Part shown: positions 16,850-35,613 of the stretch, piece by piece
How the letters are laid out: the number at the start of each line of letters is the position of its first letter
Position numbering within the stretch: the stretch's first letter is position 1
Source: a virus
Direction: 5' to 3' (one strand)
DNA length: 35,613 nucleotides
Virus genome (UHGV): UHGV-0122175
The notes under the pieces: model-generated
Databases searched by the model: none
Seen by the model: the letters and a program-made list of their open reading frames with translations, nothing else
What the model was told of the DNA's origin: nothing
Position numbers and translations under genes: made by a program

Positions 16850-16894
16850 TCAACTCACGGCGGGCATCATGCCCGCCAGTAACGGAGAGAACAA

Positions 16895-18493: not shown

Positions 18494-18495
18494 CA

Positions 18496-18819: not shown

Positions 18820-19208
18820 GCAACACATTTAAATTCAGCAGCCGGAGCGAAAAGAATTTGCAGGGCGTAAATCCTGATCTGGTGAAAGTGACCCGACGGG
18901 CACTGGAAATTTCGGAAGTGGATTTTGGTATCACCGAAGGGTTGCGCAGCCGTTACCGCCAGAAGCAACTTGTGGCCACAGGTAAGAGCCAGACCATGAA
19001 CAGCCGCCACCTCACGGGACATGCCGTGGATGTTGTGGCTTATATCGGCAGCCAGGTGTCATGGGAATGGCCGCTGTACGAAAAAATCGCAGCAGCATTC
19101 AGACAGGCCAGCCGGGAACTGAATATTCCGGTGGAATGGGGCGGCGACTGGAAGACCCTGAAAGACGGACCGCATTTTCAGTTACCACACGGAGCCTATC
19201 CGGCATGA
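18816..19208 (+). CDS. Endolysin, peptidase M15-type (zinc D-Ala-D-Ala carboxypeptidase fold)
   Basis: 130 aa with an SRHLTGHAVDV motif typical of the VanY/M15 peptidase family. This is not a P2 K lysozyme homologue. Confidence 0.7.
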   Translation: MSNTFKFSSRSEKNLQGVNPDLVKVTRRALEISEVDFGITEGLRSRYRQKQLVATGKSQTMNSRHLTGHAVDVVAYIGSQVSWEWPLYEKIAAAFRQASRELNIPVEWGGDWKTLKDGPHFQLPHGAYPA

Positions 19209-19612
19209 AGCTCTGGTCCACGCTTGGCGTCGCTTTCCTTCTGATTGCCGGATGGGGAACATCCATGCGTCTGTCGTGGTCGCTGGGCCGGGAGAACGCC
19301 AGAAACGAAGCGCAGGCCAGCACCCTGAAAAGTACCGCCGACACCCTGAATATCATCAGCGCCGGGGTACAGGATATGCAGCAGGTGCTGGCGCAACTCC
19401 GCGTGGAAAATCAGCAACGCAATCAGGACGGAGAGGTAAGACGTGAACAGCTACGCAACGATATTGCAAAAGATGAATGCGCCCACGCTTTGCCTGACGC
19501 TCGTTTTACTGACAGGCTGCGCAGGCACGCAGAACGCGCCACTGCCAGCGCCGTCAGTCCGGCTTATACCGCAGACGCTGACCATACCGGTAACGCCTCC
19601 CCCCTTCCCTGA
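19205..19612 (+). CDS. lysB: i-spanin (Rz/LysB-like)
   Basis: ATGA overlap with the endolysin stop. N-terminal TM segment (MKLWSTLGVAFLLIAGW) then a coiled-coil-like periplasmic domain. Confidence 0.65.
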   Translation: MKLWSTLGVAFLLIAGWGTSMRLSWSLGRENARNEAQASTLKSTADTLNIISAGVQDMQQVLAQLRVENQQRNQDGEVRREQLRNDIAKDECAHALPDARFTDRLRRHAERATASAVSPAYTADADHTGNASPLP

Positions 19613-19763
19613 TACTCCCACATGGGGAAATCTCGGTATATGGGGCGACCGCCTTCTGGATGCACTGGAAACCTGTAACGCGGATAAACGGGCCATTGAA
19701 TTACTGGAACAGCGCAGGCTGCAACGACTGAACAACGAGGATAACAACCATGCTGAAAACTGA
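19443..19763 (+). CDS. lysC: o-spanin lipoprotein (Rz1/LysC-like), overlapping the i-spanin in another frame
   Basis: Lipobox LLTGC after a short signal sequence and a Pro-rich mature region. The start is probably the internal Met at 19473. Confidence 0.6.
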   Translation: MNSYATILQKMNAPTLCLTLVLLTGCAGTQNAPLPAPSVRLIPQTLTIPVTPPPFPDTPTWGNLGIWGDRLLDALETCNADKRAIELLEQRRLQRLNNEDNNHAEN

Positions 19764-20217
19764 TTCCCTGCGTGAAGCCATGACCCGTTCATGCCGATGG
19801 TGTCAGGCTAACCCGGAAAAATTCACCATTTTCGTGGAGAGCGGCAACATTGAAACGACCGGAGAAACGCCCTCGTTTGTTTACCGCTATCAGATGGTGA
19901 TGTTTGTCATGGATTACGCCGGAGAGCTGGACGACCTCACGCTGCCGCTGCTGGCGTGGTTATCCGAAAATCAGCCACAGTTGTTGCTCAATCCGGAGCG
20001 TAATCAGGACATCAAATTTTCCGCCGTTATCAATGACGATGACAGCGCCGATCTCCTGTTTACGCTCCCCCTGCGGGAACGCGTTCGCATCACGCGCAGC
20101 AGTCAGGGCACACCGCAGGCAGAACACCTGCCGGAGCCAAAACCCCGCCTGCCATCTTCCGAAGGCGACTGGTCGCATGTATTCCAGGATGTGACGTGGG
20201 GTGAAAGCGATGGATAA
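19750..20217 (+). CDS. R: Tail completion protein (P2 R-like)
   Basis: 155 aa, the same length as P2 R, in conserved position. Confidence 0.8.
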   Translation: MLKTDSLREAMTRSCRWCQANPEKFTIFVESGNIETTGETPSFVYRYQMVMFVMDYAGELDDLTLPLLAWLSENQPQLLLNPERNQDIKFSAVINDDDSADLLFTLPLRERVRITRSSQGTPQAEHLPEPKPRLPSSEGDWSHVFQDVTWGESDG

Positions 20218-20845
20218 GGCATTCACCCGCGTGGATGAAACCTTTGAGGCCATCCGCGACAGCCTGAATCAGCAGGCCATCAATAACATCGCCAGAAAGC
20301 TGGCACAGGATTTACGTCGCGCCCAGCAGGCACGTATCCGGTCACAGAAAGCGCCGGACGGGACCGCATGGACACCACGCAAACGCCGTGTAACCCGGAT
20401 ACAGGAACGCATTCGCTTTATCTGGAATAACGAAGCACGCACGCTGAAAAACTGGCATCACGACACGGGGAAATACGGGCGAACCATTACCGGGTGGGAT
20501 GAGGATAAAAACAATATCCGCACGTTTTACCGGGATGACATCGACCGTTTTCTGGAAATACGCACCCGGCGCATCAACCAGGACAGCACAAAGCGCGTCC
20601 CCATGTTCGTAAAACTGCGCACCGCCCGCTACCTGAAAGCCCGTGCAGATGCTTCCGGTGTGACGGTGGGTTACAGCGGCGTGGCCGCACGTATTGCCCG
20701 CGTTCATCAGTTCGGTGAGCGCGATCAGGTTGCGCCGGGCATTTTCACCGATTACCCGGTACGTGAGCTGTTGGGCATCAGTCAGGCAGATGAACGCCTG
20801 ATTTATAACACGGTGCTGGGCCGGATTGCGGAGGCTGTACGGTGA
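20210..20845 (+). CDS. S: Tail completion / virion morphogenesis protein (P2 S-like)
   Basis: ATG at 20210 overlapping the R stop. Position conserved. Longer than P2 S. Confidence 0.75.
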   Translation: MDKAFTRVDETFEAIRDSLNQQAINNIARKLAQDLRRAQQARIRSQKAPDGTAWTPRKRRVTRIQERIRFIWNNEARTLKNWHHDTGKYGRTITGWDEDKNNIRTFYRDDIDRFLEIRTRRINQDSTKRVPMFVKLRTARYLKARADASGVTVGYSGVAARIARVHQFGERDQVAPGIFTDYPVRELLGISQADERLIYNTVLGRIAEAVR

Positions 20846-21423
20846 GCGCAGAACTCATGCGACTGCTGAGCAATATCATCCGCACCGGGATCATCTCTGA
20901 AGTTGATGAGAAGTCCTGGCGCGTGCGCATTCGCAGCGGCGAACTGGAAACAGGCTGGCTGCGCTGGAACACCACGCGCGCGGGAGCCTTCAATGTGTGG
21001 CTGCCGCCATCACCAGGCGAACAGGTGGTAATTGCCTGCATTGGCGGCAACCCGGAAACCGCCATGATAATTGGCAGCCTGTGGAGTGATGCCAGTCCGG
21101 CCCCCGGCAAAAGCCTGAAAGAAATCGTGATCAGCGCGCCGGACGGCGCGGTGTTCCGCTACGACGCGGACGCAGGCGCACTGAGCGCCAGCGGCATGAA
21201 AACGGCCACTTTACAGGCATCCGTCAGCGTGAAACTGGACACGCCCGTCGTGGAATGCACAAACCTTCTGAGAACGGCGACGCTTGACGTCACAAAAGGA
21301 GGAAAGATGAGCGGCAATATCACGCACAGCGGCGGCAACTTCACCTCAAACGGCATTACCGTGCATACGCATAAACACGGTGGCGTGAAAGGCGGCAGCG
21401 ATTCGACAGGAGGCCCGCAGTGA
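20842..21423 (+). CDS. V: Baseplate spike/assembly protein (P2 V-like)
   Basis: 193 aa. NIIRTGII near the N-terminus and HTHKHGG near the C-terminus match P2 gpV as I recall it. Confidence 0.85.
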   Translation: MSAELMRLLSNIIRTGIISEVDEKSWRVRIRSGELETGWLRWNTTRAGAFNVWLPPSPGEQVVIACIGGNPETAMIIGSLWSDASPAPGKSLKEIVISAPDGAVFRYDADAGALSASGMKTATLQASVSVKLDTPVVECTNLLRTATLDVTKGGKMSGNITHSGGNFTSNGITVHTHKHGGVKGGSDSTGGPQ

Positions 21424-21770
21424 CAACCCGCTACACAGGAATGAACCCGGACGGGACGGGAAACCTGAACGATATGGAGCACCTGAAACAGTCAGTCAGG
21501 GATATCCTGACCACCCCGCTGGCAAGCCGGGTTATGCGACGGGAATATGGCAGCCTTGTGCCTGATTTGATTGACGAACCCATGAATAACACCACGCGTC
21601 TGCAATGCATGAGTGCTGCCGTGATTGCGCTGACACGATGGGAACCCCGCATTGCCCTGGATGCCATCGACGTTGTCTGGAAAGCGGGAGGCCGCGCCGG
21701 GGTGACGCTGTCGGGCACTGTCATGCAGACCATGCAGAATGTTGAATTAACCATCACGCTGAGGGAGTAA
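21420..21770 (+). CDS. W: Baseplate wedge protein (P2 W-like, gp25 family)
   Basis: 116 aa, size and position match P2 W. Confidence 0.85.
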   Translation: MTTRYTGMNPDGTGNLNDMEHLKQSVRDILTTPLASRVMRREYGSLVPDLIDEPMNNTTRLQCMSAAVIALTRWEPRIALDAIDVVWKAGGRAGVTLSGTVMQTMQNVELTITLRE

Positions 21771-21772
21771 TC

Positions 21773-22669
21773 ATGCCCGCCGTTGACCTTTCACAGTTAC
21801 CGGACCCCGCCATCATCGCGGAGCCTGACTTTGAGGCAATTCTGGCTGACACAAAGGCCATGATGATTGCGGCTTATCCCGCCGAACAGCGTGAAGCCGT
21901 TTCCGCCGCGCTGGAGCTGGAATCGGAACCCCTTAACGTTATCGCTCAAACCATGTCGTTTCGTGAAATGCTGTTACGCCAGCGGGTTAACGAGGGGGCA
22001 CGCGCCTGCATGTTAAGCCACAGCGCCGGGACAGACCTGGACAACCTCGCGGGCAATATGAACACAAAGCGCCTGGTTATCACTCCGGCAACGGATACCA
22101 CCGACGCGGTGATGGAGAGCGACACCTCGCTGAGACTGCGGGCGCAGCGGGCGTACGACGGCCTGAGTGTTGCTGGCCCGTCAGGTGCATACGAGTATTT
22201 TGCCCGCAGCGCCAGCGGTCTGGTGCGTGATGCGCGGGCTATCAGTCCGTCTCCGGCAAATGTGACGGTTTCCATCCTGTCCACTGAAGGCGACGGCACG
22301 GCAACGGAGGCGTTGCTTAATACCGTTCGCGCCGTTCTGAATGCAGAGGATACCCGCCCGGTGGCCGACCGCCTGACCGTACAGAGCGCCAGCATCGTGA
22401 CATGGCGGCTGAATGCAAAACTGTACTTTTACCCCGGTCCGGAATCCGAACCTATTCTGGCCGCGGCAGAATCGTCATTCAGGAAGTGGCTGGCTGAACA
22501 GGGGCTTATCGGTCAGGACGTGGCGTTGTCCGCCATTGCTGCCGCACTTCATGTACACGGCGTGCAACGCGTGGAGATAATCGAACCCACACAGAATATG
22601 GCCATCAGTGACATACAGGCGGCGCGCTGTGAGTCATTCACCATCAGCGAAGGTGGGCGTAATGAGTAA
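21773..22669 (+). CDS. J: Baseplate protein (P2 J-like)
   Basis: 298 aa, position after W. Confidence 0.85.
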   Translation: MPAVDLSQLPDPAIIAEPDFEAILADTKAMMIAAYPAEQREAVSAALELESEPLNVIAQTMSFREMLLRQRVNEGARACMLSHSAGTDLDNLAGNMNTKRLVITPATDTTDAVMESDTSLRLRAQRAYDGLSVAGPSGAYEYFARSASGLVRDARAISPSPANVTVSILSTEGDGTATEALLNTVRAVLNAEDTRPVADRLTVQSASIVTWRLNAKLYFYPGPESEPILAAAESSFRKWLAEQGLIGQDVALSAIAAALHVHGVQRVEIIEPTQNMAISDIQAARCESFTISEGGRNE

Positions 22670-23192
22670 TTCACTGTTACCGCCATCAGCCAGCAATTTC
22701 ATGCGTTATGCCGAAGCTGTCGGAACGCGCATTACAGACATCCCGGTAGACCTCAACACACTGTGGTCGCCGGATACCTGCCCGGTGCATCTGCTGCCTT
22801 ATCTCGCCTGGGCATTTTCCGTTGACCGCTGGGATCGCAACTGGCCGGAAGAGACAAAGCGACAGGTTATTCGTGATGCATGGCTGATACACCGACACAA
22901 AGGGACCATCAGCGCACTGCGCAGGGCCATTGAACCACTGGGATACCTCATTCGCGTGTCTGAGTGGTGGGAGTTCGGAGGAAAACCGGGAACATTTACC
23001 GTTGAAGTCGGCACACTGGACAGTGGTGTGACGGAGGAAATGTATCTGGAAATGGAGCGGTTGATTACTGATGCCCGTCCGGTCAGCCGCCACATGACAG
23101 GGCTGAATATCATTCAGGAAATTCCGGGGGATATTTTCGCAGCGGCGGCAACTTATGACGGTGAAGTTATTACCATTTATCCAGGCGATTAA
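22662..23192 (+). CDS. I: Baseplate protein (P2 I-like)
   Basis: ATG at 22662 gives 176 aa, the length of P2 I. Overlaps the J stop. Confidence 0.8.
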   Translation: MSNSLLPPSASNFMRYAEAVGTRITDIPVDLNTLWSPDTCPVHLLPYLAWAFSVDRWDRNWPEETKRQVIRDAWLIHRHKGTISALRRAIEPLGYLIRVSEWWEFGGKPGTFTVEVGTLDSGVTEEMYLEMERLITDARPVSRHMTGLNIIQEIPGDIFAAAATYDGEVITIYPGD

Positions 23193-23194
23193 GT

Positions 23195-25336
23195 ATGAGT
23201 ACCACAACACGAAAATTTAAAACCGTTATCACCGATACGGGTGCAAAAAAATTAGCTCAGGCAGCCGCGCCAGATGGTAAGCCTGTCCGCCTGACTCATA
23301 TGGCCGTGGGCGACGGTGGCGGCACGTTGCCCACACCAGACAGTAAGCAGACCCGTCTGGTGCATGAGGTGTGGCGACACACTGTTAATCGCGTCATCCT
23401 GGACGCAACACATCAGAACCGCATTATTGCGGAGCTGGTTATTCCTCCTGAAACGGGCGGATTCTGGATCCGGGAAATTGGTGTATTTGATGAGCACGGC
23501 GATTTAATCGCGGTGGGCAATACTGCCGAAAGTTACAAACCAACCGTTGCCGAAGGGTCCGGACGTGCACAAACATTTCGCACCATTCTGACCGTATCCA
23601 GCACTGCCACCGTGGCGCTTACCGTGGATAACACCATGGTGATGGCCACAGTGGATTACGTGGATGACAAACTGAAAGAGCATGAACAGTCACGACGTCA
23701 CCCGGATGCCTCGCTGACCGCAAAAGGCTTTGTTCAACTCAGTAGCGCCACTAACAGCGATTCTGAAACGCTGGCTGCAACGCCGAAAGCGGTTAAGGCC
23801 GCGTATGACCTGGCTAACGGAAAATATACCGCTCAGGACGCCACGACGGCACGAAAAGGGATAGTCCAGCTCAGCAGTGCAACCAACAGCACGTCTGAAA
23901 CGCTGGCAGCGACACCAAAAGCTGTTAAGGCGGTAATGGATGAAACGAACAAGAAAGCGCCCTTAAACAGTCCTGCGCTGACCGGAACACCAACAACACC
24001 AACTGCGCCAAAAGGTACTAACAATACTCAGATCGCAAGCACGGCTTATGTTATGGCTGCGATCGCTGCCCTCGTGGACTCGTCGCCTGACGCACTGAAT
24101 ACGCTGAACGAGCTGGCTGCGGCGTTGGGCAACGACCCGAATTTTGCGACCACCATGACTAACGCGCTTGCGGGTAAGCAACCGAAAGATGCCACCCTGA
24201 CGGCGCTGGCCGGGCTTGCTACTGCGGCAGACAAGTTTCCGTATTTTACGGGGAATGATGTCGCCAGCCTGGCAACCCTGACAAAAGTCGGGCGGGATAT
24301 TCTTGCGAAATCGACCGTTGCTGCCGTTATCGAATACCTCGGTTTACAGGAAACGGTAAACAGGGCTGGTAACGCCGTGCAAAAAAATGGCGATACTTTG
24401 TCCGGTGGGCTTACTTTTGAAAATGACTCAATCCTTGCCTGGATTCGAAATACTGACTGGGCGAAGATTGGATTTAAAAATGATGCCGATGGTGACACTG
24501 ATTCATACATGTGGTTTGAGACAGGCGACAACGGCAATGAATATTTCAAATGGAGAAGCAAACAAAGTACCACAACAAAAGACCTGATGAATCTTAAATG
24601 GGATGCTTTGTATGTTCTTGTCAATGCCATTGTAAATGGCGAAGTCATATCAAAATCAGCAAACGGCCTACGTATTGCTTATGGTAATTACGGATTCTTT
24701 ATTCGTAATGATGGTTCAAATACATACTTCATGTTGACAAACTCCGGTGACAACATGGGGACTTATAACGGATTAAGGCCATTATGGATTAATAACGCTA
24801 CTGGCGCTGTTTCGATGGGGCGTGGCCTTAATGTTTCAGGGGAGACACTTTCAGACCGTTTTGCTATTAACAGCAGTAATGGTATGTGGATTCAGATGCG
24901 CGATAACAACGCTATCTTTGGGAAAAATATAGTTAACACTGATAGCGCTCAGGCGTTACTTCGCCAGAATCACGCCGACCGAAAGTTCATGATAGGTGGA
25001 CTGGGGAACAAGCAATTTGGCATCTACATGATTAATAACTCAAGGACAGCCAATGGCACCGATGGTCAGGCGTACATGGACAATAACGGTAACTGGCTTT
25101 GCGGTGCGCAAATTATTCCCGGAAATTATGGCAATTTTGACTCACGCTATGTGAGAGATGTCCGACTTGGCACACGTGTTGTTCAATTGATGGCGCGTGG
25201 AGGGCGTTATGAAATAGCCGGACACGCACTTACCGGATTAAGGATTATTGGTGAAGTTGATGGCGATGATGAAGCTATCTTCAGGCCGATACAAAAATAC
25301 ATCAATGGCATATGGTATAACGTCGCACAGGTGTAA
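23195..25336 (+). CDS. H: Tail fibre protein H (constant N-terminal part plus variable C-terminal part Hv)
   Basis: 713 aa. The N-terminus matches the P2/Mu fibre constant domain. Duplicated STNS.SETLAATPKAVKA motifs. A gix-like crossover site lies inside the gene at 24327..24352. Confidence 0.85.
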   Translation: MSTTTRKFKTVITDTGAKKLAQAAAPDGKPVRLTHMAVGDGGGTLPTPDSKQTRLVHEVWRHTVNRVILDATHQNRIIAELVIPPETGGFWIREIGVFDEHGDLIAVGNTAESYKPTVAEGSGRAQTFRTILTVSSTATVALTVDNTMVMATVDYVDDKLKEHEQSRRHPDASLTAKGFVQLSSATNSDSETLAATPKAVKAAYDLANGKYTAQDATTARKGIVQLSSATNSTSETLAATPKAVKAVMDETNKKAPLNSPALTGTPTTPTAPKGTNNTQIASTAYVMAAIAALVDSSPDALNTLNELAAALGNDPNFATTMTNALAGKQPKDATLTALAGLATAADKFPYFTGNDVASLATLTKVGRDILAKSTVAAVIEYLGLQETVNRAGNAVQKNGDTLSGGLTFENDSILAWIRNTDWAKIGFKNDADGDTDSYMWFETGDNGNEYFKWRSKQSTTTKDLMNLKWDALYVLVNAIVNGEVISKSANGLRIAYGNYGFFIRNDGSNTYFMLTNSGDNMGTYNGLRPLWINNATGAVSMGRGLNVSGETLSDRFAINSSNGMWIQMRDNNAIFGKNIVNTDSAQALLRQNHADRKFMIGGLGNKQFGIYMINNSRTANGTDGQAYMDNNGNWLCGAQIIPGNYGNFDSRYVRDVRLGTRVVQLMARGGRYEIAGHALTGLRIIGEVDGDDEAIFRPIQKYINGIWYNVAQV
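24327..24352. repeat. gix/hix-like invertase crossover site (left, inside H)
   Basis: TTATCGAATACCTCGGTTTACAGGAA. Its extended 34-bp form (24327..24360) is an inverted repeat of 27369..27402 with two mismatches. Confidence 0.75.
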
Positions 25337-25339
25337 ATT

Positions 25340-25867
25340 ATGCAGCACTAAAAAAATATCAGGTCAGGAAACCCAAAGACAAAAGAGCAATACCAATTAA
25401 CAAAGAATTTTGACGTAATCTGGTTGTGGTCTGAAGACGGAAAAAACTGGTATGAGGAAGTGAAAAACTTTCAACCAGACACAATAAAGATTGTTTACGA
25501 TGAAAATAATATTATTGTCGCCATCACCAAAGATGCATCCACGCTTAACCCTGAAGGTTTTAGCGTCGTTGAGGTTCCCGATATTACAGCCAACCGCCGC
25601 GCTGATGATTCAGGAAAGTGGATGTTTAAGGATGGAGCTGTAGTTAAACGGATTTATACGGCAGACGAACAGCAACAACAAGCTGAATCACAAAAGGCCG
25701 CATTGCTTTCCGAAGCTGAATCAGTCATCCAGCCGCTGGAACGCGCTGTCAGGCTGAATATGGCAACAGACGAGGAACGCACACGACTGGAAGCATGGGA
25801 ACGCTACAGTGTTCTGGTCAGCCGTGTGGATACGGCAAATCCTGAATGGCCACAAAAGCCTGAATAA
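25340..25867 (+). CDS. G: Tail fibre assembly chaperone G (expressed orientation), with in-frame TAA at codon 4
   Basis: ATG 25340, CAG, CAC, then TAA (25349..25351). The frame reopens and matches G' residue for residue ([36 protein letters not shown]). The ORF track restarts at TTG 25424. Confidence 0.6.
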
Positions 25868-25895
25868 AAATTAAGGCCCGATAGCGGGCCTTGTC

Positions 25896-26429
25896 TCATT
25901 CAGGTTGTTCGGGAAACGTTACTGGCAGGCTGGAAGTGTCTGTAGATTCGACTTTCTGCGCAAAGAGCATCCACTCTGTTAATTTTTGTTTATTCTCGTC
26001 GGAAATGATGCCCAGCCGTAGCTGTGAGTCCCATAGCTGGGTTTTATCCCTGACGAGCTGTAGCAGGCTTTGCTTTTCATTTTCCGCCAGCTGCCTCTGC
26101 TCTTCCTCGGTATAAGTTCGCTTTACCACTACGCCATCTTTGAACATCCACTTACCCGAAATGTCAGCACGGCGATTTGCTGTAATATCAGGTAATTCAA
26201 CGACGCTTGCGCCTTCCGGATTAATTGCTGAAACATCCTTTTCAATACAAATAATAACGCCGTTATGGTCATAGACCATTTTCAAAGTGTCTGGCTGGAA
26301 ATTCTTTTGTTCCTCATACCAGTTTTTCCCATCCTCTGTATAAAGCCATTTGATGTTAAATTGTTTCGTTAGCTGGTATTGCTCTTTTGTTTTAGGGTTG
26401 CCAGCAGTAATATTTTTTAAGTGCATCAT
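25896..26429 (-). CDS. Alternative tail fibre assembly chaperone G'
   Basis: 177 aa, intact. N-terminus [40 protein letters not shown] parallels G. Confidence 0.8.
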   Translation of the reverse strand: MMHLKNITAGNPKTKEQYQLTKQFNIKWLYTEDGKNWYEEQKNFQPDTLKMVYDHNGVIICIEKDVSAINPEGASVVELPDITANRRADISGKWMFKDGVVVKRTYTEEEQRQLAENEKQSLLQLVRDKTQLWDSQLRLGIISDENKQKLTEWMLFAQKVESTDTSSLPVTFPEQPE

Positions 26430-26431
26430 AA

Positions 26432-27376
26432 TTAAATACTCCCCGCGTTATACCACGTTCCATTAATGCAATACTGAATTGGCCTTGCCTGAGTTGTATC
26501 AATTAATTCATCACGGTTTCCGTTAACTGAACCCGTAACGACATAACCTGACCTGTCAGACCAGCCGGGGCCATTCCATGTCTGAACAGATGACAGACCG
26601 CCAAGGCGAATACCTGTAATAAACCTTGAGTTACATTCTGCCTGCGTGTATGCACCAACATCTCCCGCAGAGGGTTTGCGGGTCGTGGTGTAAAACTCTG
26701 ACCAGTCAGCCTCAAATCCATAACCATCACGCGCTGAACGATAAAAAATACCGCCGTTCCTGTAATTCACGCGGAACTGTACAGCAGGGCAGCTCCCCGT
26801 ATTCATATTGAAGTGGAGGATTAATGTCGATGTGCCACCAATGTTTGCGTTATAGACCCCGCTATTCCAGTTCCAGCCAACAGCTTTATCATTTCCGACA
26901 GTGCTTCCTGTTTGTCCTAAAGCAAATGCAGGTTGTTGATTTTTCGTGTTGTAGTCTCGTCGCCAGCCAGGAGCATAAGCATCACCATGATTAATATAAG
27001 TGAATTGAGCGTTAGTAATTCCGCCACCGCTGGACGTGCTCGGCGTGGTAACGCGTATGGTCATTGCGCTGCGAGTGCCAATAACTTCCACCACAGCACC
27101 TGCAAGACAAATATTTCCGCAACCTGTATCTGTAATGACCTTATTATTTGCATAAGCCCATGAGCCTTTGCACATCCAGTAAGGATGGTTAAATGCTCCC
27201 TGACTCTCCAGCCACGAAATAAATTGCGCGGTTGTCCAGACCTGACTATCGCCACCAATATTCAGCCATGCGCTATATGCGCGGCAGGCCCCAATATTTT
27301 TGGTGAAGGTATCTTTTCCCGGAATATCTGCGCCGTTCTGGTTTTTCTGTAATGCGCCAGAAGCCTGATTTACCGT
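26432..27376 (-). CDS. Alternative tail-fibre C-terminal segment H'v (no promoter or start of its own in this orientation)
   Basis: The minus-strand frame is open from the right gix site down to 26432. It begins LGLQETVNQASGALQKN..., parallel to H residues EYLGLQETVNRAGNAVQKN. Confidence 0.7.
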   Translation of the reverse strand, partial: TVNQASGALQKNQNGADIPGKDTFTKNIGACRAYSAWLNIGGDSQVWTTAQFISWLESQGAFNHPYWMCKGSWAYANNKVITDTGCGNICLAGAVVEVIGTRSAMTIRVTTPSTSSGGGITNAQFTYINHGDAYAPGWRRDYNTKNQQPAFALGQTGSTVGNDKAVGWNWNSGVYNANIGGTSTLILHFNMNTGSCPAVQFRVNYRNGGIFYRSARDGYGFEADWSEFYTTTRKPSAGDVGAYTQAECNSRFITGIRLGGLSSVQTWNGPGWSDRSGYVVTGSVNGNRDELIDTTQARPIQYCINGTWYNAGSI

Positions 27377-27402
27377 TTCCTGTAAACCGAGGTTTTAGAT
27401 AA
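27377..27402. repeat. gix/hix-like invertase crossover site (right)
   Basis: TTCCTGTAAACCGAGGTTTTAGATAA. Near-identical to the Mu gixL sequence as I recall it (TTCCTGTAAACCGAGGTTTTGGATAA). Confidence 0.75.
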
Positions 27403-27456
27403 TGGCCGTTTCCGGCCTGCATGGCATGATTTGCGCTTTTGGACGGGAGATTCAGC

Positions 27457-28047
27457 GTGCTGATTGGCTATGTAAGGGTATCAACAAATGACCAGAATAC
27501 AGACCTGCAACGAAACGCTCTTGTTTGTGCCGGATGTGAACAAATATTTGAAGATAAATTAAGCGGGACAAAGACAGACCGACCGGGATTAAAACGCGCT
27601 TTAAAGCGCCTTCAAAAAGGTGACACGCTGGTTGTCTGGAAACTGGATCGCCTCGGGCGAAGCATGAAACATCTGATTTCTCTCGTCGGGGAACTACGGG
27701 AGCGAGGGATTAATTTTCGCAGTCTGACCGATAGCATAGATACATCTTCTCCAATGGGGCGTTTTTTCTTCCACGTGATGGGTGCCCTGGCTGAAATGGA
27801 ACGTGAATTAATTGTTGAACGTACACTGGCCGGACTGGCGGCAGCGCGCGCACGGGGGCGCACAGGCGGACGTCGACCGAAGCTGACAAAAGAACAGCAT
27901 GAGCAAATAGCAAGGCTGATTAAAAACGGTCACGACAGAAAACAACTGGCAATAATTTACAGCATTGGTATATCGACAATTTATCGTTACCACCCCGCAG
28001 GAGAATCAAGTGGAACAATTGAGAAGAGTAAACAAAATAACCGCTAA
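27457..28047 (+). CDS. Serine DNA invertase (Gin/Pin/Cin/Hin family)
   Basis: GTG start with GGGAGA ribosome-binding site. N-terminus LIGYVRVSTNDQNTDLQRNAL with the catalytic Ser, and a C-terminal HTH. Sits just outside the invertible segment. Confidence 0.9.
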   Translation: MLIGYVRVSTNDQNTDLQRNALVCAGCEQIFEDKLSGTKTDRPGLKRALKRLQKGDTLVVWKLDRLGRSMKHLISLVGELRERGINFRSLTDSIDTSSPMGRFFFHVMGALAEMERELIVERTLAGLAAARARGRTGGRRPKLTKEQHEQIARLIKNGHDRKQLAIIYSIGISTIYRYHPAGESSGTIEKSKQNNR

Positions 28048-28068
28048 TCTGGCCATTAGCGGTTTTTG
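28040..28068. terminator. Bidirectional intrinsic terminator between the convergent invertase and U genes
   Basis: ACCGCTAAT-ctggcc-ATTAGCGGT stem followed by TTTTT. The invertase stop codon lies inside the stem. Confidence 0.6.
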
Positions 28069-28075
28069 TGTTAAA

Positions 28076-28570
28076 TCAGAACAGCCCTTTAACGGAGCTG
28101 GCCGCGCTGTTAAGGGATGATGTGACCTTATCTTTGAAGCCGGACAGCATATCGCTGAACGATGAGGATTGCAGGCGCTCCCGCAAATCCTCATCACAGC
28201 GTTCAAGGGTCAGTGAAAATTCTATTTTTTTCGCCTTACCGTAGCGATCAAATTCAGAGCGGGTCGTATTCGTTCCGGTCAGGACATACATGCCGTAAAT
28301 CTGCCCGACACCATCAATCAGAGGCCAGGGGCGTCCTGTATATGCCTGCGTGGTCAGCAGCGACAGCGACACTTCGCCACCTGTAATTTCAGGATAAAGC
28401 ACACCGGAAAGCACGATGCGATCATCACCTGCACCGATATACTGCCAGCTTGCTGAACGGTTAACGCGTTCATTTTTCACATGCCGCCAGCTTTTGTTTT
28501 GCTGTAACTGCTGATGCGGCAGCGTGCGCAGCTCAAAAACAAACATGCCGTAGATCATCATCATGACCAT
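28076..28570 (-). CDS. U: Tail protein U-like
   Basis: 164 aa, close to P2 U in size, immediately downstream of the tape measure gene on the minus strand. Confidence 0.7.
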   Translation of the reverse strand: MVMMMIYGMFVFELRTLPHQQLQQNKSWRHVKNERVNRSASWQYIGAGDDRIVLSGVLYPEITGGEVSLSLLTTQAYTGRPWPLIDGVGQIYGMYVLTGTNTTRSEFDRYGKAKKIEFSLTLERCDEDLRERLQSSSFSDMLSGFKDKVTSSLNSAASSVKGLF

Positions 28571-28576
28571 GACTCC

Positions 28577-31420
28577 TCAATCTTTATCGTAAAAACTGCC
28601 ACGTCCGGCACGGGCGCGCCGTTCCATTTCTGCCCTGACCATTTCACCGACCAGTTTCGCCAGTTCGCGGGGATTCTGTGTAACGACGTTATGCAGATGA
28701 ACATGAATTTCACCGCCAAATCCTGAGGCAACAGGCTCCCGGTTACGGGAAGTTACAGGAACTGATGCCACTGGAGATCGTATGGCCTCCGCCACCGGGC
28801 GGGAGCTGGCCGCAACAACAGGGACCAGCGCCGGAGGCAGCGGAGCCGGGACCACGGGTGTGATATTAATTGCGGGGGCAGGCTTACTGACCTGCGCAAT
28901 CTTCCGCTCCTGCCACTCCCCACGAACAGCAAGTGCGCGGGGCAGGTTCTTAAAGACAATATCGCCGGGGCCAATGCGTTTTTTCGTCTCATCAACCAGC
29001 TTACCTGTGTTATCAGCAATTTTGCTGAGTCTGCGCAGCGTACCAGTATTGCTGTCTGTGAGCGGTTTATTGTCTTTGGGGTTATCACCTCCGGTGCCAT
29101 TGCCATTTTCTACAGGCTTCGGCGGATTGATTTTCGCCAGGTCCCCCTGAAGCAAGGCAACCTTGTCCTGAAGAATGGCCGCACGCTGTGCGTCTTCGAT
29201 TTTCTTTCTCGCCCTTTCCGCTTCATCCGGAAGAACACCGAGTTTTTCAAGTATCCACGCCAGCGTATCCAGCAACATTTTTGCAGGCGTCAGAACAAGC
29301 TGTAACGCGCCACCAAGAACGTTACCGAATATCTCGCCAGCACTGGTACATTTATCCAGCGTTTCCTTGCTGGACTCCATCGGTGACAGCAGCGATTTAA
29401 ACCAGTTAAACACCTGGCTGATCCCGCTTCCGATTGCGTCAAAAACAGGGCCAAACCGTTCAAAGGTTTCACGCAACGGGTTCAGCCTTTCCATAATCCC
29501 GTTGAACACCCCGGCATAAAACGCCTTAATGGGTTCCCAGTATTTCCAGATGAGAACCGCCGCAGCCACAAACGCAGCGGCAATCAATCCGACCGGACTG
29601 AACAGCGCCCCGATAGCGCCTCCCAGTAAAGAAACGGAACCCGTCACCATTCCCCATAGTGCTGGCAGGACCCTGACAGCATTCATTGATCCGGTCAGGA
29701 GAGAAAAACCAAGACGCAGTTTTGCCAGCGGGCCAGCAAGCACACCAATAGCCAGCGACAACGAGCCAACCGTTGCAGTCATTGCCAGCAACGCACCGCC
29801 TGCTATCAGTAGCTGGCGCGTCAGTGCCGGATGGGCCTGCGCCAGCGCCGTCACCCTTGATACCACCCGCGTGAGCCACTGCGTGACAGAACGCAGCGGA
29901 CCGTCAATCAGATCTGCAATGCGGATGCGCAACCCTTCCCATGCACTGCCGAGTGATTTCAGATCGCCGTCAAGGTTGTTGGCCATAACCTTTGCTGTGC
30001 GTTCAGCCTCACCGCGCGCGCCTTCAAGTTCTTTTCTCAGTTTGGGTAAGGAACCGTCACCCGCTGCATCAACGAGCGCCATAAACGATGTGAAAGCCTC
30101 TTCTCCGGCAATGTCCTTAAAGAACGATACCCGGTCAACTTCCCCGTATTTGCGGGTGGCTTTATAAAGGTCGGCCAGCACATCCTCCATCGGGCGCATT
30201 TTGCCGTTCGCGTCAGAGACTGCCACACCAAGCTCTTTCAGAGCTTCTGCCGCCGCCTTTGGCGGTGATGCCAGACGAGCCAGGCTGGCACGCATTGCCG
30301 TCCCGGCATCACTCCCTCTGATACCCATATTCGCCAGCACGCCCGCCATCGCTGCGGCCTGCTCCAGCGATATCCCCAGCTTGCCCGCCACCGGACCTGC
30401 ATATTTCATGGTTTCGCCCAGTGCGCGAAGGTCAGTGTTGGTACGGGTAAACGCTGCGGTGAGCGTGTCGCCAACCCGGTCCATCTGGTCAGCAGAAAGG
30501 CCGAACTGCGTCAGGATATTTGAGCCAATATCCGCCGTCTCGCCGAGATCCATGCCGCCAGCCGTTGCCATGCTCAGCACGCCCGGAAGCGCAGCCTGAA
30601 TGGCCTGCGGTGTGAAGCCAGCCATTGCAAGAAATGCCTGCCCACTGGCGGCATCGCCTGCGGTGAACTGCGTTTCAGAGCCAAGTTTTAACGCCTGCTC
30701 ACGCAGCGCCTTAAACTGCGGGCTGTTTTTGTCGATTCGCGTCAGTGCCTGAACGCGGGACATCTCTTTCCCGAACCCGATCGCAGGCTGCAAAAAACGC
30801 CCGGCAGCATAGCCGCCAGCCGCTGCCGCACCAATTGCCAGCGCACCACCTGTTTTCAGTTTTCCCGCTGTTTCCTGCGCGCGCGAATACCGCTCACGCG
30901 CCCGCGTTACACGCGCAAGCGCCTGCCGTTCGCGTTCAAGCTGGTTGTTGTACTGTTCGGTGCGTCTGATGGCCTGCTGGATGGTGTTATCGCTGCCTGT
31001 CAGGGAAATGCCGTGGCGTTTCAGCTCTCCGCCAAGCTCCCGCATTTTCTGAATTTCCCGTGTACGCGATTCATTCAGGCGTTCAAGCCGGGTGCTTAAC
31101 TGCTGCATCAGCTTTTGTTGTTTTTCGCTGAGCACTGTACCCGTGCGTTGTAACTGATTAAGGGCGTTAAGCTGGCGTCGTGCTTTCACGATGCCCGCAT
31201 CCGCTTTACTGACAGCGTCGCGGGCGCGCTCAAATGATCGCGCCTGACGCTCGAGATTTTTGATCGCCCCCTGCGTTCGCTGGATGGAGTCACCAAACTG
31301 CCCCATCAGGCGGCGGGCGTTTTCGGCAGGTCGGGTCAGCCTGTCAACGGCGCTGAAAGCGACCCGGATATCAAGAGTCTTCATTGTCTGCATTCCCGCT
31401 GCGAAGTGCCGCCCGCTCAC
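28577..31420 (-). CDS. T: Tail tape measure protein (P2 T-like)
   Basis: 947 aa with a coiled-coil N-terminal third and a Gly/Ala-rich hydrophobic core. Located after the E/E' chaperone pair. Confidence 0.85.
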   Translation of the reverse strand: MSGRHFAAGMQTMKTLDIRVAFSAVDRLTRPAENARRLMGQFGDSIQRTQGAIKNLERQARSFERARDAVSKADAGIVKARRQLNALNQLQRTGTVLSEKQQKLMQQLSTRLERLNESRTREIQKMRELGGELKRHGISLTGSDNTIQQAIRRTEQYNNQLERERQALARVTRARERYSRAQETAGKLKTGGALAIGAAAAGGYAAGRFLQPAIGFGKEMSRVQALTRIDKNSPQFKALREQALKLGSETQFTAGDAASGQAFLAMAGFTPQAIQAALPGVLSMATAGGMDLGETADIGSNILTQFGLSADQMDRVGDTLTAAFTRTNTDLRALGETMKYAGPVAGKLGISLEQAAAMAGVLANMGIRGSDAGTAMRASLARLASPPKAAAEALKELGVAVSDANGKMRPMEDVLADLYKATRKYGEVDRVSFFKDIAGEEAFTSFMALVDAAGDGSLPKLRKELEGARGEAERTAKVMANNLDGDLKSLGSAWEGLRIRIADLIDGPLRSVTQWLTRVVSRVTALAQAHPALTRQLLIAGGALLAMTATVGSLSLAIGVLAGPLAKLRLGFSLLTGSMNAVRVLPALWGMVTGSVSLLGGAIGALFSPVGLIAAAFVAAAVLIWKYWEPIKAFYAGVFNGIMERLNPLRETFERFGPVFDAIGSGISQVFNWFKSLLSPMESSKETLDKCTSAGEIFGNVLGGALQLVLTPAKMLLDTLAWILEKLGVLPDEAERARKKIEDAQRAAILQDKVALLQGDLAKINPPKPVENGNGTGGDNPKDNKPLTDSNTGTLRRLSKIADNTGKLVDETKKRIGPGDIVFKNLPRALAVRGEWQERKIAQVSKPAPAINITPVVPAPLPPALVPVVAASSRPVAEAIRSPVASVPVTSRNREPVASGFGGEIHVHLHNVVTQNPRELAKLVGEMVRAEMERRARAGRGSFYDKD

Positions 31421-31640
31421 GCCAGCTAACCACTTCGCCGGGCGTCATCATGAAGATTTCGGCGGGCGACCAGTTAAAAATGGCGGCGATATCTGCCACC
31501 AGATCTTCGATGTGATCAAAGCACACCAGGGTGATTACGCTGCCGTCTCCTGCACGCTCTTCGCGCCAGAGTCTGGCTCGCTCATAAAATTTACAGCCAC
31601 AGCGCACAACTGAATAAAATCGCGTGACGACATTTTTTTA
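31371..31640 (-). CDS. E' extension, -1 frame relative to E (frameshift product E+E')
   Basis: The -1 frame is open from just downstream of the A7 run (plus strand T7 at 31633..31639) to 31371. This overlaps the 3' end of E, as in the P2 E/E' and lambda G/GT arrangement. Confidence 0.5.
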
Positions 31641-31909
31641 ATCATCACTTCATCCAGTCGTGGCGAGGTCACGCGAGGCAACAGCGTGAACATGGTATCC
31701 GCTTTCAGATTCAGCACATCAGACAGCGACAGACCACGCAGGGATCCAGCCTGTTCAATAGCCCCGGTGATCTCCACATACGTGATTTTTTCGCCACCAC
31801 GCTCAATTGGTCGGGTCAGTTTTACGCCACGTTCGACAGCCATATCCTCGCCTGCCGTCACATCATCCGCCACGGTGTTATTCCGGGTTTCAGTATCGAT
31901 GTCTTTCAT
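31535..31909 (-). CDS. E: Tail assembly chaperone E-like
   Basis: 124 aa between the tube and tape measure genes. Contains an ATT-AAA-AAA-ATG run near its 3' end. Confidence 0.7.
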   Translation of the reverse strand: MKDIDTETRNNTVADDVTAGEDMAVERGVKLTRPIERGGEKITYVEITGAIEQAGSLRGLSLSDVLNLKADTMFTLLPRVTSPRLDEVMIKKMSSRDFIQLCAVAVNFMSEPDSGAKSVQETAA

Positions 31910-31964
31910 CAGTTGTCTCCTTTTCAGTCAGAGGCGACGCACTGCGCCGCCTGCATATTACTTA

Positions 31965-32477
31965 TCAGCCAAGCCCAAGCGCGGAACGGATACGGTCAGG
32001 CACAATGTCCTTGCCGTCCTTCCGGTAGATGTGGTTCAACAGGTCGATTTCCCACAGCGGGCGATCGTTAACGCTCAGCTTGTAGTAGGTGTTTTTGACA
32101 GCGTAAGTGTGTGATGTGGCTTCGCCCTGTTTGGCTTCCCCCATATCAATTTCCGTCACACGCCCGCGCATCTCGATTTCATACAGATCGCTTTCTGCAT
32201 CGGTGTAGTATTCACCCGCAAAACGCAGCAGCGTGCCGTCAATCGTACCGCCATATTTAAGGAACAGCGCACGAACAGCTCCCCCCATGACAAAACTCGC
32301 ATCAAGCGCGGAGTCGTCCAGACCGAGATCAATACTTACCGCCCCCATCATGCCACCACCACGATAGCTGTCGGTTTTGCGCGTCAGTTTGGGCGGCGTG
32401 ACGGATGTCACTTTACCCACTTCGTTTTCACCATCCACAAACAACGTAAAAAAGCGAAGATGTTTTGGTACAGCCAT
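31965..32477 (-). CDS. FII: Tail tube protein (P2 FII-like)
   Basis: 170 aa, close to P2 FII in size, immediately downstream of the sheath gene. Confidence 0.85.
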   Translation of the reverse strand: MAVPKHLRFFTLFVDGENEVGKVTSVTPPKLTRKTDSYRGGGMMGAVSIDLGLDDSALDASFVMGGAVRALFLKYGGTIDGTLLRFAGEYYTDAESDLYEIEMRGRVTEIDMGEAKQGEATSHTYAVKNTYYKLSVNDRPLWEIDLLNHIYRKDGKDIVPDRIRSALGLG

Positions 32478-33661
32478 CAGGCACCTCCCAGCACCGCAAA
32501 TGCGGGACCAAAGAATTCATCAGTAAACGTCTGGTAAAGCTCCATGTCTTCCAGCGGGGGAACAGGCGTATATTTGTAGCGAATACGCACACGTCCCTGA
32601 CGTAAATTCGTGGTGCCGTTATCCACCACGTCATACCAGCACTCCGCACCAATCAGTTTCCCGGCAGTAACCAGCGAATCCAGTTTTGCCCTGATGGCAC
32701 TGATAACATCCTTCACGTTCGCAGGCGTCAGTGGACTGTCGATGGTTTCAAACTGCGCTTCCGCAATTGAATCAGCCAGCACCTGTGCGGTTCGGGTATA
32801 CACCTCAAAGATGTAGGCGTTCGTTTCCGGTGTGCGGTTGCCCCAGAAGCGGAACCCGTTGCGACGAATAATGGTCGTGATTTCTTTGTTGTTGAGGCTG
32901 TTGGCATCGCTGTCTTCGGCCTGCAATGACCAGAACACATGCCTGGACATTCCCAGCACATTTTTAACCGGAACGTTGGACAGCGATTTGTGCCAGCCCT
33001 GCTCATGGTCAATGTACGCACGAAGGCCGCACGCATAAGCAGGCGCGGGGAACGTTTCGTTTTTGCCACTTTTCGGGTTGTAGGCGATGAAGTCCGGCCA
33101 TAAGAGCATCACCTCACGTTCGTTGAATTTCTGGCGGTAGGTAATCGCCTCAGCCATCGTGTTACAGCCGTGACATGAGGCATACACAAACGCGCGCAGT
33201 TTACCTGCAATCACGCACAGGGATTTTGTTACAGCCTCCGTGTCCAGCTCCGGCGCGGCCAGAATACGCGGACGGTATCCGATGCTTTCATCCTGCTCTG
33301 CAACAAGCAGCGCATACATCCCCGTATAGCTGCCGTCAGATTCAGAACCACCGATAACCAGTTGATCCTGCGTTTTTCCGTCTTCTTCTTTGTGTTCAGC
33401 CACGCGAACGACGATCACCTTTGTGCTCACCTGGTCTGCGATGGCCTTAAGCGCACGGTAAAGCGTCCCCGTTGTTCCGCATTTTCCCAGCACGTCATTG
33501 ACGCGGGTCAGCAGTGTGGGCTTGTTCAGCGGGAACAGCTCCGCGTCCGCATCATCCGCCGTTGCCACGATACCGATAACACTGGAATCAACATCATTAA
33601 TCGCTGTTACCAGGTCGGTACTTTCCGTAACACGGGCACCATGAAAACGAGTTTCACTCAT
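32477..33661 (-). CDS. FI: Contractile tail sheath protein (P2 FI-like)
   Basis: 394 aa, close to P2 FI in size, first gene of the minus-strand tail operon. Confidence 0.9.
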   Translation of the reverse strand: MSETRFHGARVTESTDLVTAINDVDSSVIGIVATADDADAELFPLNKPTLLTRVNDVLGKCGTTGTLYRALKAIADQVSTKVIVVRVAEHKEEDGKTQDQLVIGGSESDGSYTGMYALLVAEQDESIGYRPRILAAPELDTEAVTKSLCVIAGKLRAFVYASCHGCNTMAEAITYRQKFNEREVMLLWPDFIAYNPKSGKNETFPAPAYACGLRAYIDHEQGWHKSLSNVPVKNVLGMSRHVFWSLQAEDSDANSLNNKEITTIIRRNGFRFWGNRTPETNAYIFEVYTRTAQVLADSIAEAQFETIDSPLTPANVKDVISAIRAKLDSLVTAGKLIGAECWYDVVDNGTTNLRQGRVRIRYKYTPVPPLEDMELYQTFTDEFFGPAFAVLGGA

Positions 33662-33818
33662 AGCTTCAGCCCCTTGTATCCGTTAAATGATTCGGCAACA
33701 ATCATCACCCACCACGCGCGTAATCTCACCCCTGCGCCGTTCTCCCGCCACGGCGACAACAAAAAGCAGTAACCCCCTCCGCACGCACATGCGACCATGC
33801 CGCACAGGGAGGGAACAG
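33662..33818. promoter_or_regulatory. Divergent promoter region between the sheath operon and D
   Basis: 157-bp gap between divergently transcribed late genes. Promoter elements not resolved by eye. Confidence 0.35.
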
Positions 33819-34928
33819 ATGACCGACACCACCATGCAATTGCTCAGTCAGGGCACAGACCCAGTAAAAATGCCGGATTTTGATATTCTCGCGGAGGGTA
33901 AAACGCTGTCAGGCGTGGCAGAGCGCCTGATGAGCCTGTCACTGACCGACAACCGGGGATTTGAGGCGGACCAGCTCACCATCACGCTGGATGATGCCGA
34001 TGGCCAGTTGCAGCTACCGCCACGGGGCGCGCGTCTGACGGTTCTCATTGGCTGGAAAGGAGAGCCGCTGACAGAAAAAGGCACTTACATTGTTGATGAA
34101 ATCGCTCACGAAGGACCGCCGGACAGGCTGACTGTTTCAGCCAGAAGCGCAGATTTTCGGGATGAATTTAACGTTAAACGTGAGGTGTCCTGGCATGATG
34201 TGACCGTTGAGCGTGTGGTATCCGCCATCGCTCATCGGTATGGTCTGAAACCGCAAATCAGCGAAATGCTGATGGATATCGAAATCGACCACGCCGACCA
34301 GACCGAAGAAAGCGACATGTCCTTCCTTACGCGCATGGCGGAAATGCTGGGCGCAATCACCACGGTAAAAAGCGGCAATCTGTTATTCATCATGCCAGGT
34401 GGTGGCGTGAACGCACAGGGCCAGCCGTTGCCCTCGTTCGCCATTACACGCAGCAGCGGCGATCGCCATCAGTTCCGCATTGCTGACCGCGAGGCGTATA
34501 CGGGGGTACGCGCCTACTGGCTTGATCTTAATTACGGGAAAAAGAAAAAAGTCAGCGTGAAACGCCGTAAACCGCCAAAACCCAAAAAGGAGAAAAGCAG
34601 CAGCCGTGAAGGTGATTATATGGAAGGCGCGGAAGGCAATGTGTTTGTGTTACGCAAGACTTATCAGAACGAGCAGGCAGCAAGACGCGCAGCGGCGGCA
34701 AAGTGGCAGCAACTACAACGCGGAGCCGCATCATTCTCCATCACGCTGGCGCGTGGACGTGCAGAACTCTACCCCGAAATGCATGGCACGGTAACAGGAT
34801 TTAAAAGCGAGATTGATAATCAGGACTGGATCATTGCAAAAGCCGAGCACACCATTGATAACAGCGGCTTTACCACGCAGCTTGAGCTTGAGGCAAAAAT
34901 CCCGGAATGGATAGCGGAAACAGAGTGA
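33819..34928 (+). CDS. D: Late control gene D protein (tail/baseplate hub, gpD family)
   Basis: ATG at 33819 with GGGAGGG ribosome-binding site gives 369 aa. Size and position next to ogr match P2 D. Confidence 0.8.
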   Translation: MTDTTMQLLSQGTDPVKMPDFDILAEGKTLSGVAERLMSLSLTDNRGFEADQLTITLDDADGQLQLPPRGARLTVLIGWKGEPLTEKGTYIVDEIAHEGPPDRLTVSARSADFRDEFNVKREVSWHDVTVERVVSAIAHRYGLKPQISEMLMDIEIDHADQTEESDMSFLTRMAEMLGAITTVKSGNLLFIMPGGGVNAQGQPLPSFAITRSSGDRHQFRIADREAYTGVRAYWLDLNYGKKKKVSVKRRKPPKPKKEKSSSREGDYMEGAEGNVFVLRKTYQNEQAARRAAAAKWQQLQRGAASFSITLARGRAELYPEMHGTVTGFKSEIDNQDWIIAKAEHTIDNSGFTTQLELEAKIPEWIAETE

Positions 34929-34970
34929 GCAACTTAGAATAGCGGCAGCACCACGTTAAGGGAGGTCGCT

Positions 34971-35231
34971 ATGTTCCGTTGTCCGCTTTGTGGCGCATCT
35001 GCCCGTATCCGCACCAGTCGTCCGGAAAATGATTCAAACACCGTGCGGCAAAAGTATTACCAGTGTAACAATCTGGAATGCGGCGTATGCTTCTCAACAC
35101 TGGAAGCTTTCCATAAATTCACATCGAAACACGCCTCCGGCGTTCACTCATCAGAAGGTATCCCGTGGCATGAGCTGCCAGCTTCACACAGGGGAAACAA
35201 TCAGATGAGTTTGCCTTTACCTCAGAATTAA
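34971..35231 (+). CDS. ogr: Late gene transcriptional activator Ogr (zinc finger, Ogr/Delta family)
   Basis: 86 aa with the C4 zinc motif CPLCG...(n22)...CNNLECG. Sits at the end of the late region as in P2. Confidence 0.85.
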   Translation: MFRCPLCGASARIRTSRPENDSNTVRQKYYQCNNLECGVCFSTLEAFHKFTSKHASGVHSSEGIPWHELPASHRGNNQMSLPLPQN

Positions 35232-35422
35232 CAGGCAGAATTGCCGGAGTAACAAAAAAGCGATAGATTACGCGCGGGTGCCTTTCGGCTGATGGTCGGA
35301 GGGAATACCCGAAGGCCAGATGTGGAAAGGCCCCGGAAAACATTTCTGTTTAACCGAGGCCCTAACATATCTACCTTAAGCAAGTGATAGGTTAGCGCCT
35401 CTCCAACAAAGGAGCAAGCGCT

Positions 35423-35563
35423 ATGTCGCAAAAATCGCTTATGGCCATCACGTTCTGCGTGACGGTAATCCTCATCATCTGGATGCTGCACGGTTCGCTG
35501 TGTGAAATACGGATGAGCTTCTGGGGAGCGGAGTTTGCGGCGTTCTTACAGTGTAAGCAGTAA
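35423..35563 (+). CDS. hok: Hok/Gef-family type I toxin (small membrane peptide)
   Basis: 46-aa ORF MSQKSLMAITFCVTVILIIWMLHGSLCEIRMSFWGAEFAAFLQCKQ. One TM helix followed by the SLCEI...AAFL.C signature shared with HokA/Hok (from memory). GGAG ribosome-binding site. A perfect 8-bp hairpin lies just 3' at 35571..35592. Confidence 0.65.
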   Translation: MSQKSLMAITFCVTVILIIWMLHGSLCEIRMSFWGAEFAAFLQCKQ

Positions 35564-35613
35564 GGAAACCGCGACGGGGGAGCAATCCCCCGTCAATCGG
35601 TTGCCAGGGTAAA

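Follow-up and report, generated by a model that had tools for sequence, protein, structure and literature searches.

In the P2-family prophage analysed here, the tail genes FI to U run opposite to their orientation in phage P2. This layout very probably goes back to a single ancient inversion that is shared across a whole clade, that took place without involvement of the neighbouring Gin invertase, and that left between FI and D a gap resembling the pP/pO region of P2.

Gene layout of the window

The window, by which we mean the whole 35,613-nucleotide stretch of UHGV virus genome UHGV-0122175 that was analysed, holds a complete P2-family prophage, whose late genes were read from the list of open reading frames together with Pfam matches (Table 1). 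The P2-like tail module is present in full, with Pfam matches to sheath, tube, E-type chaperone, tape measure, GpU, GpD and Ogr/Delta proteins. According to its annotation, the P2 record has FI, FII, E/E', T, U, D and ogr co-directional with V-W-J-I-H-G, and D is the final gene of the F operon, with a start that overlaps the stop of U. In the window, FI-FII-E-T-U lie opposite to J/H and to D, and a gap of the ~153-bp type separates the divergent genes FI and D. The open reading frames, the Pfam matches and the P2 record all confirm what the earlier note had described, namely that FI to U are inverted relative to P2 while D and ogr keep the P2 orientation.

Two assignments within the block call for comment. 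The Pfam match of E lies under the curated cut-off, and the call is backed by the position of the gene, the annotation of phage P88 and 34.8% identity to P2 E. The putative E' frame overlaps E at its 3' end and also the beginning of T; in the P88 annotation it appears as a separate small "tail protein".

Table 1. Coordinates of genes and predicted signals in the window (positions are those of the whole stretch).
Feature	Coordinates	Strand	Basis
Integrase	50-1042	minus	
Q and P	11984-14781	minus	ORF list and Pfam
O through H	14937-25336	plus	ORF list and Pfam
Baseplate/fibre genes V, W, J, I, H	20842-25336	plus	ORF list
Fibre region with oppositely oriented fibre and chaperone genes	25896-27175	minus	
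Gin-type serine DNA invertase	27439-28047	plus	Pfam Resolvase 1.5e-50 and HTH_7
Hairpin shaped like a bidirectional intrinsic terminator	28039-28064	both	Terminator scan and folding
Tail protein U (GpU)	28076-28570	minus	Pfam Phage_P2_GpU 1.5e-38; P88 gp44 collinear
Tape measure protein T	28577-31420	minus	Pfam PhageMin_Tail 2.3e-58; P88 gp45
Putative E' frame, frameshift extension of the chaperone	31371-31607	minus	ORF list
Tail assembly chaperone E	31535-31909	minus	Pfam Phage_TAC_7 4.7e-4 (weak); P88 gp47
Tail tube FII	31965-32477	minus	Pfam Phage_tube 2.1e-45
Tail sheath FI	32477-33661	minus	Pfam Phage_sheath_1, Gp18_domIII_N, sheath_1C
Divergent FI/D control region, 157 bp	33662-33818	none	Sequence; length conserved in relatives
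Predicted -10 hexamer of the FI promoter, GATGAT	33701-33706	minus	Exactly 32 nt beyond half-site
Predicted P2-type late activator (Ogr) site	33739-33760	both	GTTCT-N12-ACAAC on plus; GTTGT-N12-AGAAC on minus
Predicted -10 hexamer of the D promoter, GACCAT	33793-33798	plus	Exactly 32 nt beyond other half-site
Tail/baseplate hub protein D, 369 aa	33819-34928	plus	Pfam Phage_GPD
Ogr/Delta-type zinc-finger late activator	34971-35231	plus	Pfam Ogr_Delta 5.1e-14

Within the P2 family, the prophage in the window is of the P88-like (Xuanwuvirus) type. Positions 25300-35613 of the window align with Escherichia phage P88 (Peduoviridae, Xuanwuvirus) as one collinear piece, 100% covered at 95.7%, and positions 1-25000 are 80% covered at 96.3%; the genome-wide similarity estimated from these two segments is ~82%, above the >70% used as the genus criterion. 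Citrobacter phage phiSM and Xuanwuvirus P884B11 match the tail region of the window at ~96%.

Distribution of the inverted layout in the P2 family

Loci of the P2 family were fetched with D-protein profiles, 80 of them from species-representative genomes and 240 from IMG/VR, and tblastn was used to place J, gin, U, T, E, FII, FI and ogr with respect to D. The resulting survey is a sample and not the whole family (best 80 matches per scan, 329 loci in all). Across the 299 informative P2-family loci, orientation splits perfectly by the identity of D to the D protein of the window. Where D is 61.4-100% identical, FI to U lie opposite to D and the start of FI is upstream of D (147/147 loci); related copies were searched for both orientations, and every one of these clade loci presented the same one. 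Where D is at most 53.9% identical, all 152 informative loci have the P2 order (14 in the first batch and 138 in the second). In the second batch, U immediately precedes D on the same strand (163/163 loci). J had the orientation of D whenever it was detected.

Beyond Xuanwuvirus, the inverted layout extends to more distant ICTV genera, with Salmonella phage SEN5 (Senquatrovirus) and with Klebsiella phages, among which are Kp4871-3 and Kp4847-1 and the genera Reginaelenavirus and Reipivirus. The clade with the inverted order has hosts throughout the Enterobacterales, and these include Escherichia, Salmonella, Klebsiella, Enterobacter, Citrobacter, Pantoea and Erwinia, as well as Serratia, Yersinia, Xenorhabdus, Photorhabdus, Providencia, Morganella and Edwardsiella. 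Within E. coli, the 901-bp FI-D junction was found in 1380 of 5426 complete genomes, nearly always at 95-99% identity. The length of the FI-D gap is also conserved, ranging from 140 to 161 bp with a median of 153 bp in the 125 inverted loci measured. Together with the uniform orientation of the clade loci, this conservation bears out the suggestion in the earlier note that we are dealing with a settled arrangement of a lineage rather than a recent accident.

The P2 order was found in the annotated outgroups Dobby, PhiBP82.2, a Mannheimia phage and Vibrio MAR, which belong to Pseudomonas (Citexvirus), Burkholderia (Tigrvirus), Mannheimia (Baylorvirus) and Vibrio (Vhmlvirus), respectively. This makes the P2 order the ancestral state and the inverted order a derived one. 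Since each clade has one orientation and no second inversion appears among the 299 loci, the evidence fits a single ancient event, and it does not bear out the earlier view of the tail operon as a block that can move within the family. As the survey is a sample, rare independent inversions may exist elsewhere in the P2 family.

Borders of the inverted block

At the left border, the stops of the invertase gene (28047) and of U (28076) face each other across a hairpin with a perfect 10-bp stem, which overlaps the final codons of the invertase gene. Its folding energy is -15.7 kcal/mol on the plus strand (z = -3.7) and -16.1 kcal/mol on the minus strand (z = -4.4) relative to shuffled controls, and a U-rich run is found on both strands, in agreement with the bidirectional terminator previously proposed for this position.

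At the right border, the reading frame of D is open from 33687, and the real start is the ATG at 33819. Three lines of evidence place it there: a strong AGGGAGGG ribosome-binding site in front of this ATG, the start given in the P88 annotation, and alignment with D from P2, from SEN5 and from a pair of Klebsiella phages. With D starting there, the divergent FI/D gap comprises the full 157 bp of the control region and not 25 bp; the end at 33818 given in the earlier note was correct. In annotations, D should begin at the position equivalent to 33819, and the small open reading frame over the control region should be left out.

The left border of the block lies right beside the invertase gene, and serine invertases can act on secondary sites. 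One could therefore imagine that the inversion is recent or still ongoing, with Gin acting on cryptic gix-like sites at the borders, or that it reflects an accident of assembly or rearrangement peculiar to this sequence. A scan of the window with a position weight matrix (PWM) built from gix/hix half-sites retrieved exactly two gix sites, at 24327-24352 and 27377-27402, with scores of ~31. At the borders of the FI-U block the best scores were -1.6 and 0.1, so that the cryptic gix sites suggested earlier are not found there. As for recombination scars, a search for inverted repeats bracketing the block returned only the repeats of the fibre segment and the terminator palindrome; the sole long inverted repeat in the region (24323-24387 / 27342-27406) brackets the fibre segment. 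In addition, gin adjoins U in only 22 of 133 inverted loci, with the remaining 111 having no gin beside U, and SEN5 has the inverted layout with no invertase. These observations, the single orientation of the clade loci and the spread of the junction through E. coli genomes make a recent or Gin-driven inversion, or an accident, extremely unlikely.

The invertase is part of a Mu-like invertible fibre cassette and not of the inverted tail block. The cassette, which is 92-96% identical to Mu, D108, P1 and P7, is a later import. Gin flips just the Mu-type fibre segment between the two gix sites and is unconnected with the tail block.

The divergent FI/D region

No canonical promoter emerged when the FI/D gap was scanned for sigma-70 signals. 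P2 late promoters have no -35 element, and a negative scan is therefore expected for activator-dependent late promoters of this kind. The annotated activator sites of P2 are GTTGT-N12-CCAAC at pF, GTTGT-N12-CCATC at pP/pO and GTTGT-N12-CAAAT at pV. Searching the late regions of the window with the strict P2 consensus TGT-N12-ACA gave no match; the left half-site of the window reads TCT and not the canonical TGT, a deviation shared by 59 of 108 relatives. Sites came to light once the search was relaxed and made position-aware: a predicted activator site lies near the middle of the FI/D gap (Table 1), and the same GTTCT-N12-ACAAC is present at 14844-14865, in the P/O gap of the window (14782-14936).

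This element is a general property of the clade. T[G/C]T-N12-ACAA[C/T] occurs at a fixed position in 108 of the 109 unique FI-D gaps, and the remaining gap has the close variant GTTGT-N12-ACAGT. Measured over the unique gaps, the median distance from the centre of the site is 84 bp to the FI ATG (range 78-88) and 69 bp to the D ATG (range 67-79); the former compares with ~82 bp in P2.

In the mapped late promoters of P2 a -10 hexamer lies 32 nt from the activator site, and transcription is annotated to start 7-8 nt past the hexamer, at a distance of 55.5-56.5 nt from the centre of the site. Both sides of the FI/D site in the window have a candidate hexamer at exactly this distance, from which we predict transcription starts near 33694 (minus strand) for FI and near 33805 (plus strand) for D. 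The spacing is strongly conserved: on the FI side, NANNNT is found at +32 nt in 93% of the unique relatives and at other offsets in at most 29%; on the D side the corresponding figures are 96% and at most 8%. The region thus has, in sequence form, the features of an Ogr/Delta-dependent late promoter, namely a dyad ~55 nt upstream, a -10 hexamer and no -35 element.

The composite pattern of site and hexamer is also specific. It has four matches in the window, where 0.4 are expected from shuffling, and three of the four fall at the two divergent late regions. In SEN5, the pattern marks the expected positions of pP, pO, pV, pFI and pD, with one extra match (32749-32770) outside any expected late promoter.

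These results suggest that the FI/D gap contains two outward-facing promoters. We infer from the conserved geometry that both fire and that both depend on Ogr. An alternative is that the ancient inversion is real and that the gap holds only the FI promoter, with D read from some other signal, for instance a constitutive promoter, one that does not need Ogr, or a start within the gap that has no relation to the site. The predicted D leader is indeed very short (~14 nt), and the absence of a canonical sigma-70 promoter from the gap can be cited in the same direction, even if such a scan is expected to miss P2 late promoters. D could be transcribed from another promoter, or only weakly, and the conservation of the gap could derive in part from pFI alone and from the ribosome-binding site of D. 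Set against this, the D-side hexamer is placed exactly 32 nt away in nearly all unique relatives and almost never at nearby offsets, and the D-side geometry mirrors both the FI side and the mapped pP/pO pair of P2. We consider an FI-only promoter region unlikely, and D has probably gained its late promoter by sharing the activator site of pF.

Discussion

The tail block could in principle be foreign, that is, a sheath-tube-tape measure module from another contractile-tail phage that was inserted in the opposite orientation. Phage genomes are mosaic, and the neighbouring fibre cassette clearly comes from Mu/P1-like phages. Identity to P2 is 46% for FI, 42% for FII and 47% for U within the block, and 49% for D, 46% for V, 45% for W, 44% for P and 47% for Q outside it. 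As divergence from P2 is alike inside and outside the block, these values point to descent and not to foreign import. Across relatives, the identities of FI and D to the window fall in parallel, and a pF-type activator site with near-P2 spacing to the FI ATG accompanies FI. The import of a foreign module is thus very unlikely, and it was rejected on the uniform divergence.

We therefore return to an ancient inversion within the lineage. The segment from pF through FI-FII-E/E'-T-U would have been inverted once, in place, in the ancestor of a large Enterobacterales Peduoviridae clade that includes Xuanwuvirus, Senquatrovirus, Reginaelenavirus and Reipivirus. Such an event would have split the F operon of P2 (FI...U-D) into two units. 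FI to U would now be read on the minus strand, with transcription ending at the terminator that faces the fibre/cargo region, while D would have remained on the plus strand, cut off from pF. Because pF and its Ogr-type activator site would have moved with the block, they would have ended up back to back with D, an arrangement that appears to have been stable since.

In this configuration the ~153-bp gap would work in the same way as the pP/pO region of P2, with a central activator site at about -55 from each of two outward late promoters, pFI leftward and pD rightward. The promoter pF would have kept its own site, and D would be read from its mirror image, a promoter served by the same bound activator. 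On balance we favour the reading that the inversion created a second bidirectional Ogr-dependent region, pFI/pD, in which D captured an existing site and none was newly evolved, with somewhat less confidence than we place in the inversion itself. If true, this would be a natural, clade-wide case of operon splitting mended by promoter sharing. The FI/D gap also offers a simple test case, in which one Ogr-type site would serve two divergent late promoters.

The layout as such is already known de facto, through deposited annotations: it is present in the deposited or published genomes of P88, SEN4/5 and phiSM and in many Klebsiella prophage records. We found no explicit description of the inversion in the papers searched on P88, SEN4/5 and Citrobacter rodentium phiSM, where P88-like phages are called P2-like without comment on it, nor did we find one in those searched on the diversity of P2-like viruses and on P2/P4 hotspots. 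The reading of the FI/D gap as a shared-activator region, of which we likewise found no description in the literature searched, may be new, but it extends the pP/pO model of P2 in a straightforward way. The discovery value of the layout is accordingly small. The inverted orientation is the norm in P88/Xuanwuvirus, in SEN4/5 and in the Klebsiella Reginaelenavirus and Reipivirus, so that an arrangement once flagged as notable is in fact routine, being standard for P88-like prophages, which occur throughout the Enterobacterales and in roughly one in four complete E. coli genomes. Its use may be taxonomic, as the inverted block is a clean synapomorphy that sets the lineage of P88, SEN4, Reginaelenavirus and Reipivirus apart from the sampled Peduoviridae with P2 order.

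The closest known system is P88, in which gene order and orientation are the same as in the window over 10.3 kb (G-segment, gin, opposite-strand U-T-E-FII-FI, then D). The two differ in the early/immunity region (the first ~2.8 kb), in small indels and in the length of the tape measure protein (947 aa in the window, 935 aa in P88). In the P88 annotation ogr was missed and a small open reading frame was called inside the control region.

For the fibre cassette, the known counterparts are the G segment of Mu and the C segment of P1 with their invertases Gin and Cin, which correspond to positions 24327-28047 of the window with its two gix sites. A Mu-type segment inverts only a fibre part of ~3 kb, whereas the FI-U block of the window has no gix sites and one fixed orientation.

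The F operon of P2 shares its genes and their internal order with the window, at 33-49% protein identity. P2 has an E/E' -1 frameshift at the matching position of the gene order; in the window E' is an overlapping reading frame and a putative extension. The operon of P2, D included, is co-directional with V-G, whereas in the window the part from pF to U is inverted and D forms a separate unit. Finally, the pP/pO region of P2, in which one site serves both directions with transcription starts 55.5 nt from its centre on each side, provides the model for both the P/O gap and the FI/D gap of the window, which have the same layout of a central dyad and outward-facing hexamers at 32 nt. P2 itself has no FI/D pair; in the window that pair would be a product of the inversion, with a function predicted by its likeness to pP/pO.

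Late control region, S/V junction and tail block

The 44 codons 5' of the true start of D, the tail hub gene, are free of stops in the D frame (33687-33818), and in the collinear Escherichia phage P88 and in RefSeq E. coli records a small "hypothetical protein" has been called over them. This annotated ORF sits on top of the conserved late control region between FI and D, and is probably a spurious call.

The S and V genes overlap in the window (20201-21423), therefore leaving no room for a separate pV, the late promoter of V. P2 and Salmonella phage SEN5 differ from the window, where the S/V gap for pV is absent; in SEN5, a late activator site with a −10-like hexamer 32 nt beyond its half-site lies 5' of V (9261-9282, SEN5 coordinates). 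The baseplate and fibre genes of the window may be transcribed by read-through from the late promoter pO.

A D gene 98% identical to that of the window was found on a contig labelled as a Firmicute, "Vagococcus sp. WN89Y" (NZ_JBQPOM010000071.1), which shares the prophage layout of the window; the label probably reflects assembly contamination or mislabelling. In the P88-like prophages of E. coli 520873 (CP025923/NC_049344) and 503458 (CP025874/NC_049341), the window match is broken up because IS100, an IS21-family element, has inserted within the tail block.

RNAs, toxin-like ORF and fibre cassette

Features outside the tail block of the window
Feature	Position	Strand	Remarks
isrK	5188-5262	+	Early region; Rfam match, score above gathering
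C4 antisense RNA	5298-5385	+	Early region; Rfam match, score above gathering
Invertible tail-fibre cassette, Mu/D108/P1/P7-type	24323-28047		Alternative fibre C-termini, chaperones, invertase gene gin
gix site 1	24327-24352		Within fibre gene H
gix site 2	27377-27402		
Hydrophobic ORF	35423-35563	+	46 aa, MSQKSLMAITFCVTVILIIWMLHG...

Together, isrK and C4 (5188-5385) constitute an antisense immunity RNA pair of the P1/P7 type, here housed in a P2-family prophage. Where the hydrophobic ORF lies, beside the attachment end, P88 has an annotated MokW-like toxin of the hok/gef family; the ORF probably represents cargo, a gene of a type I toxin-antitoxin system.

The fibre cassette shows 92-96% nucleotide identity to its counterparts in Mu, D108, P1 and P7, phages that are otherwise unrelated; the P2-family backbone acquired it recently by horizontal transfer.
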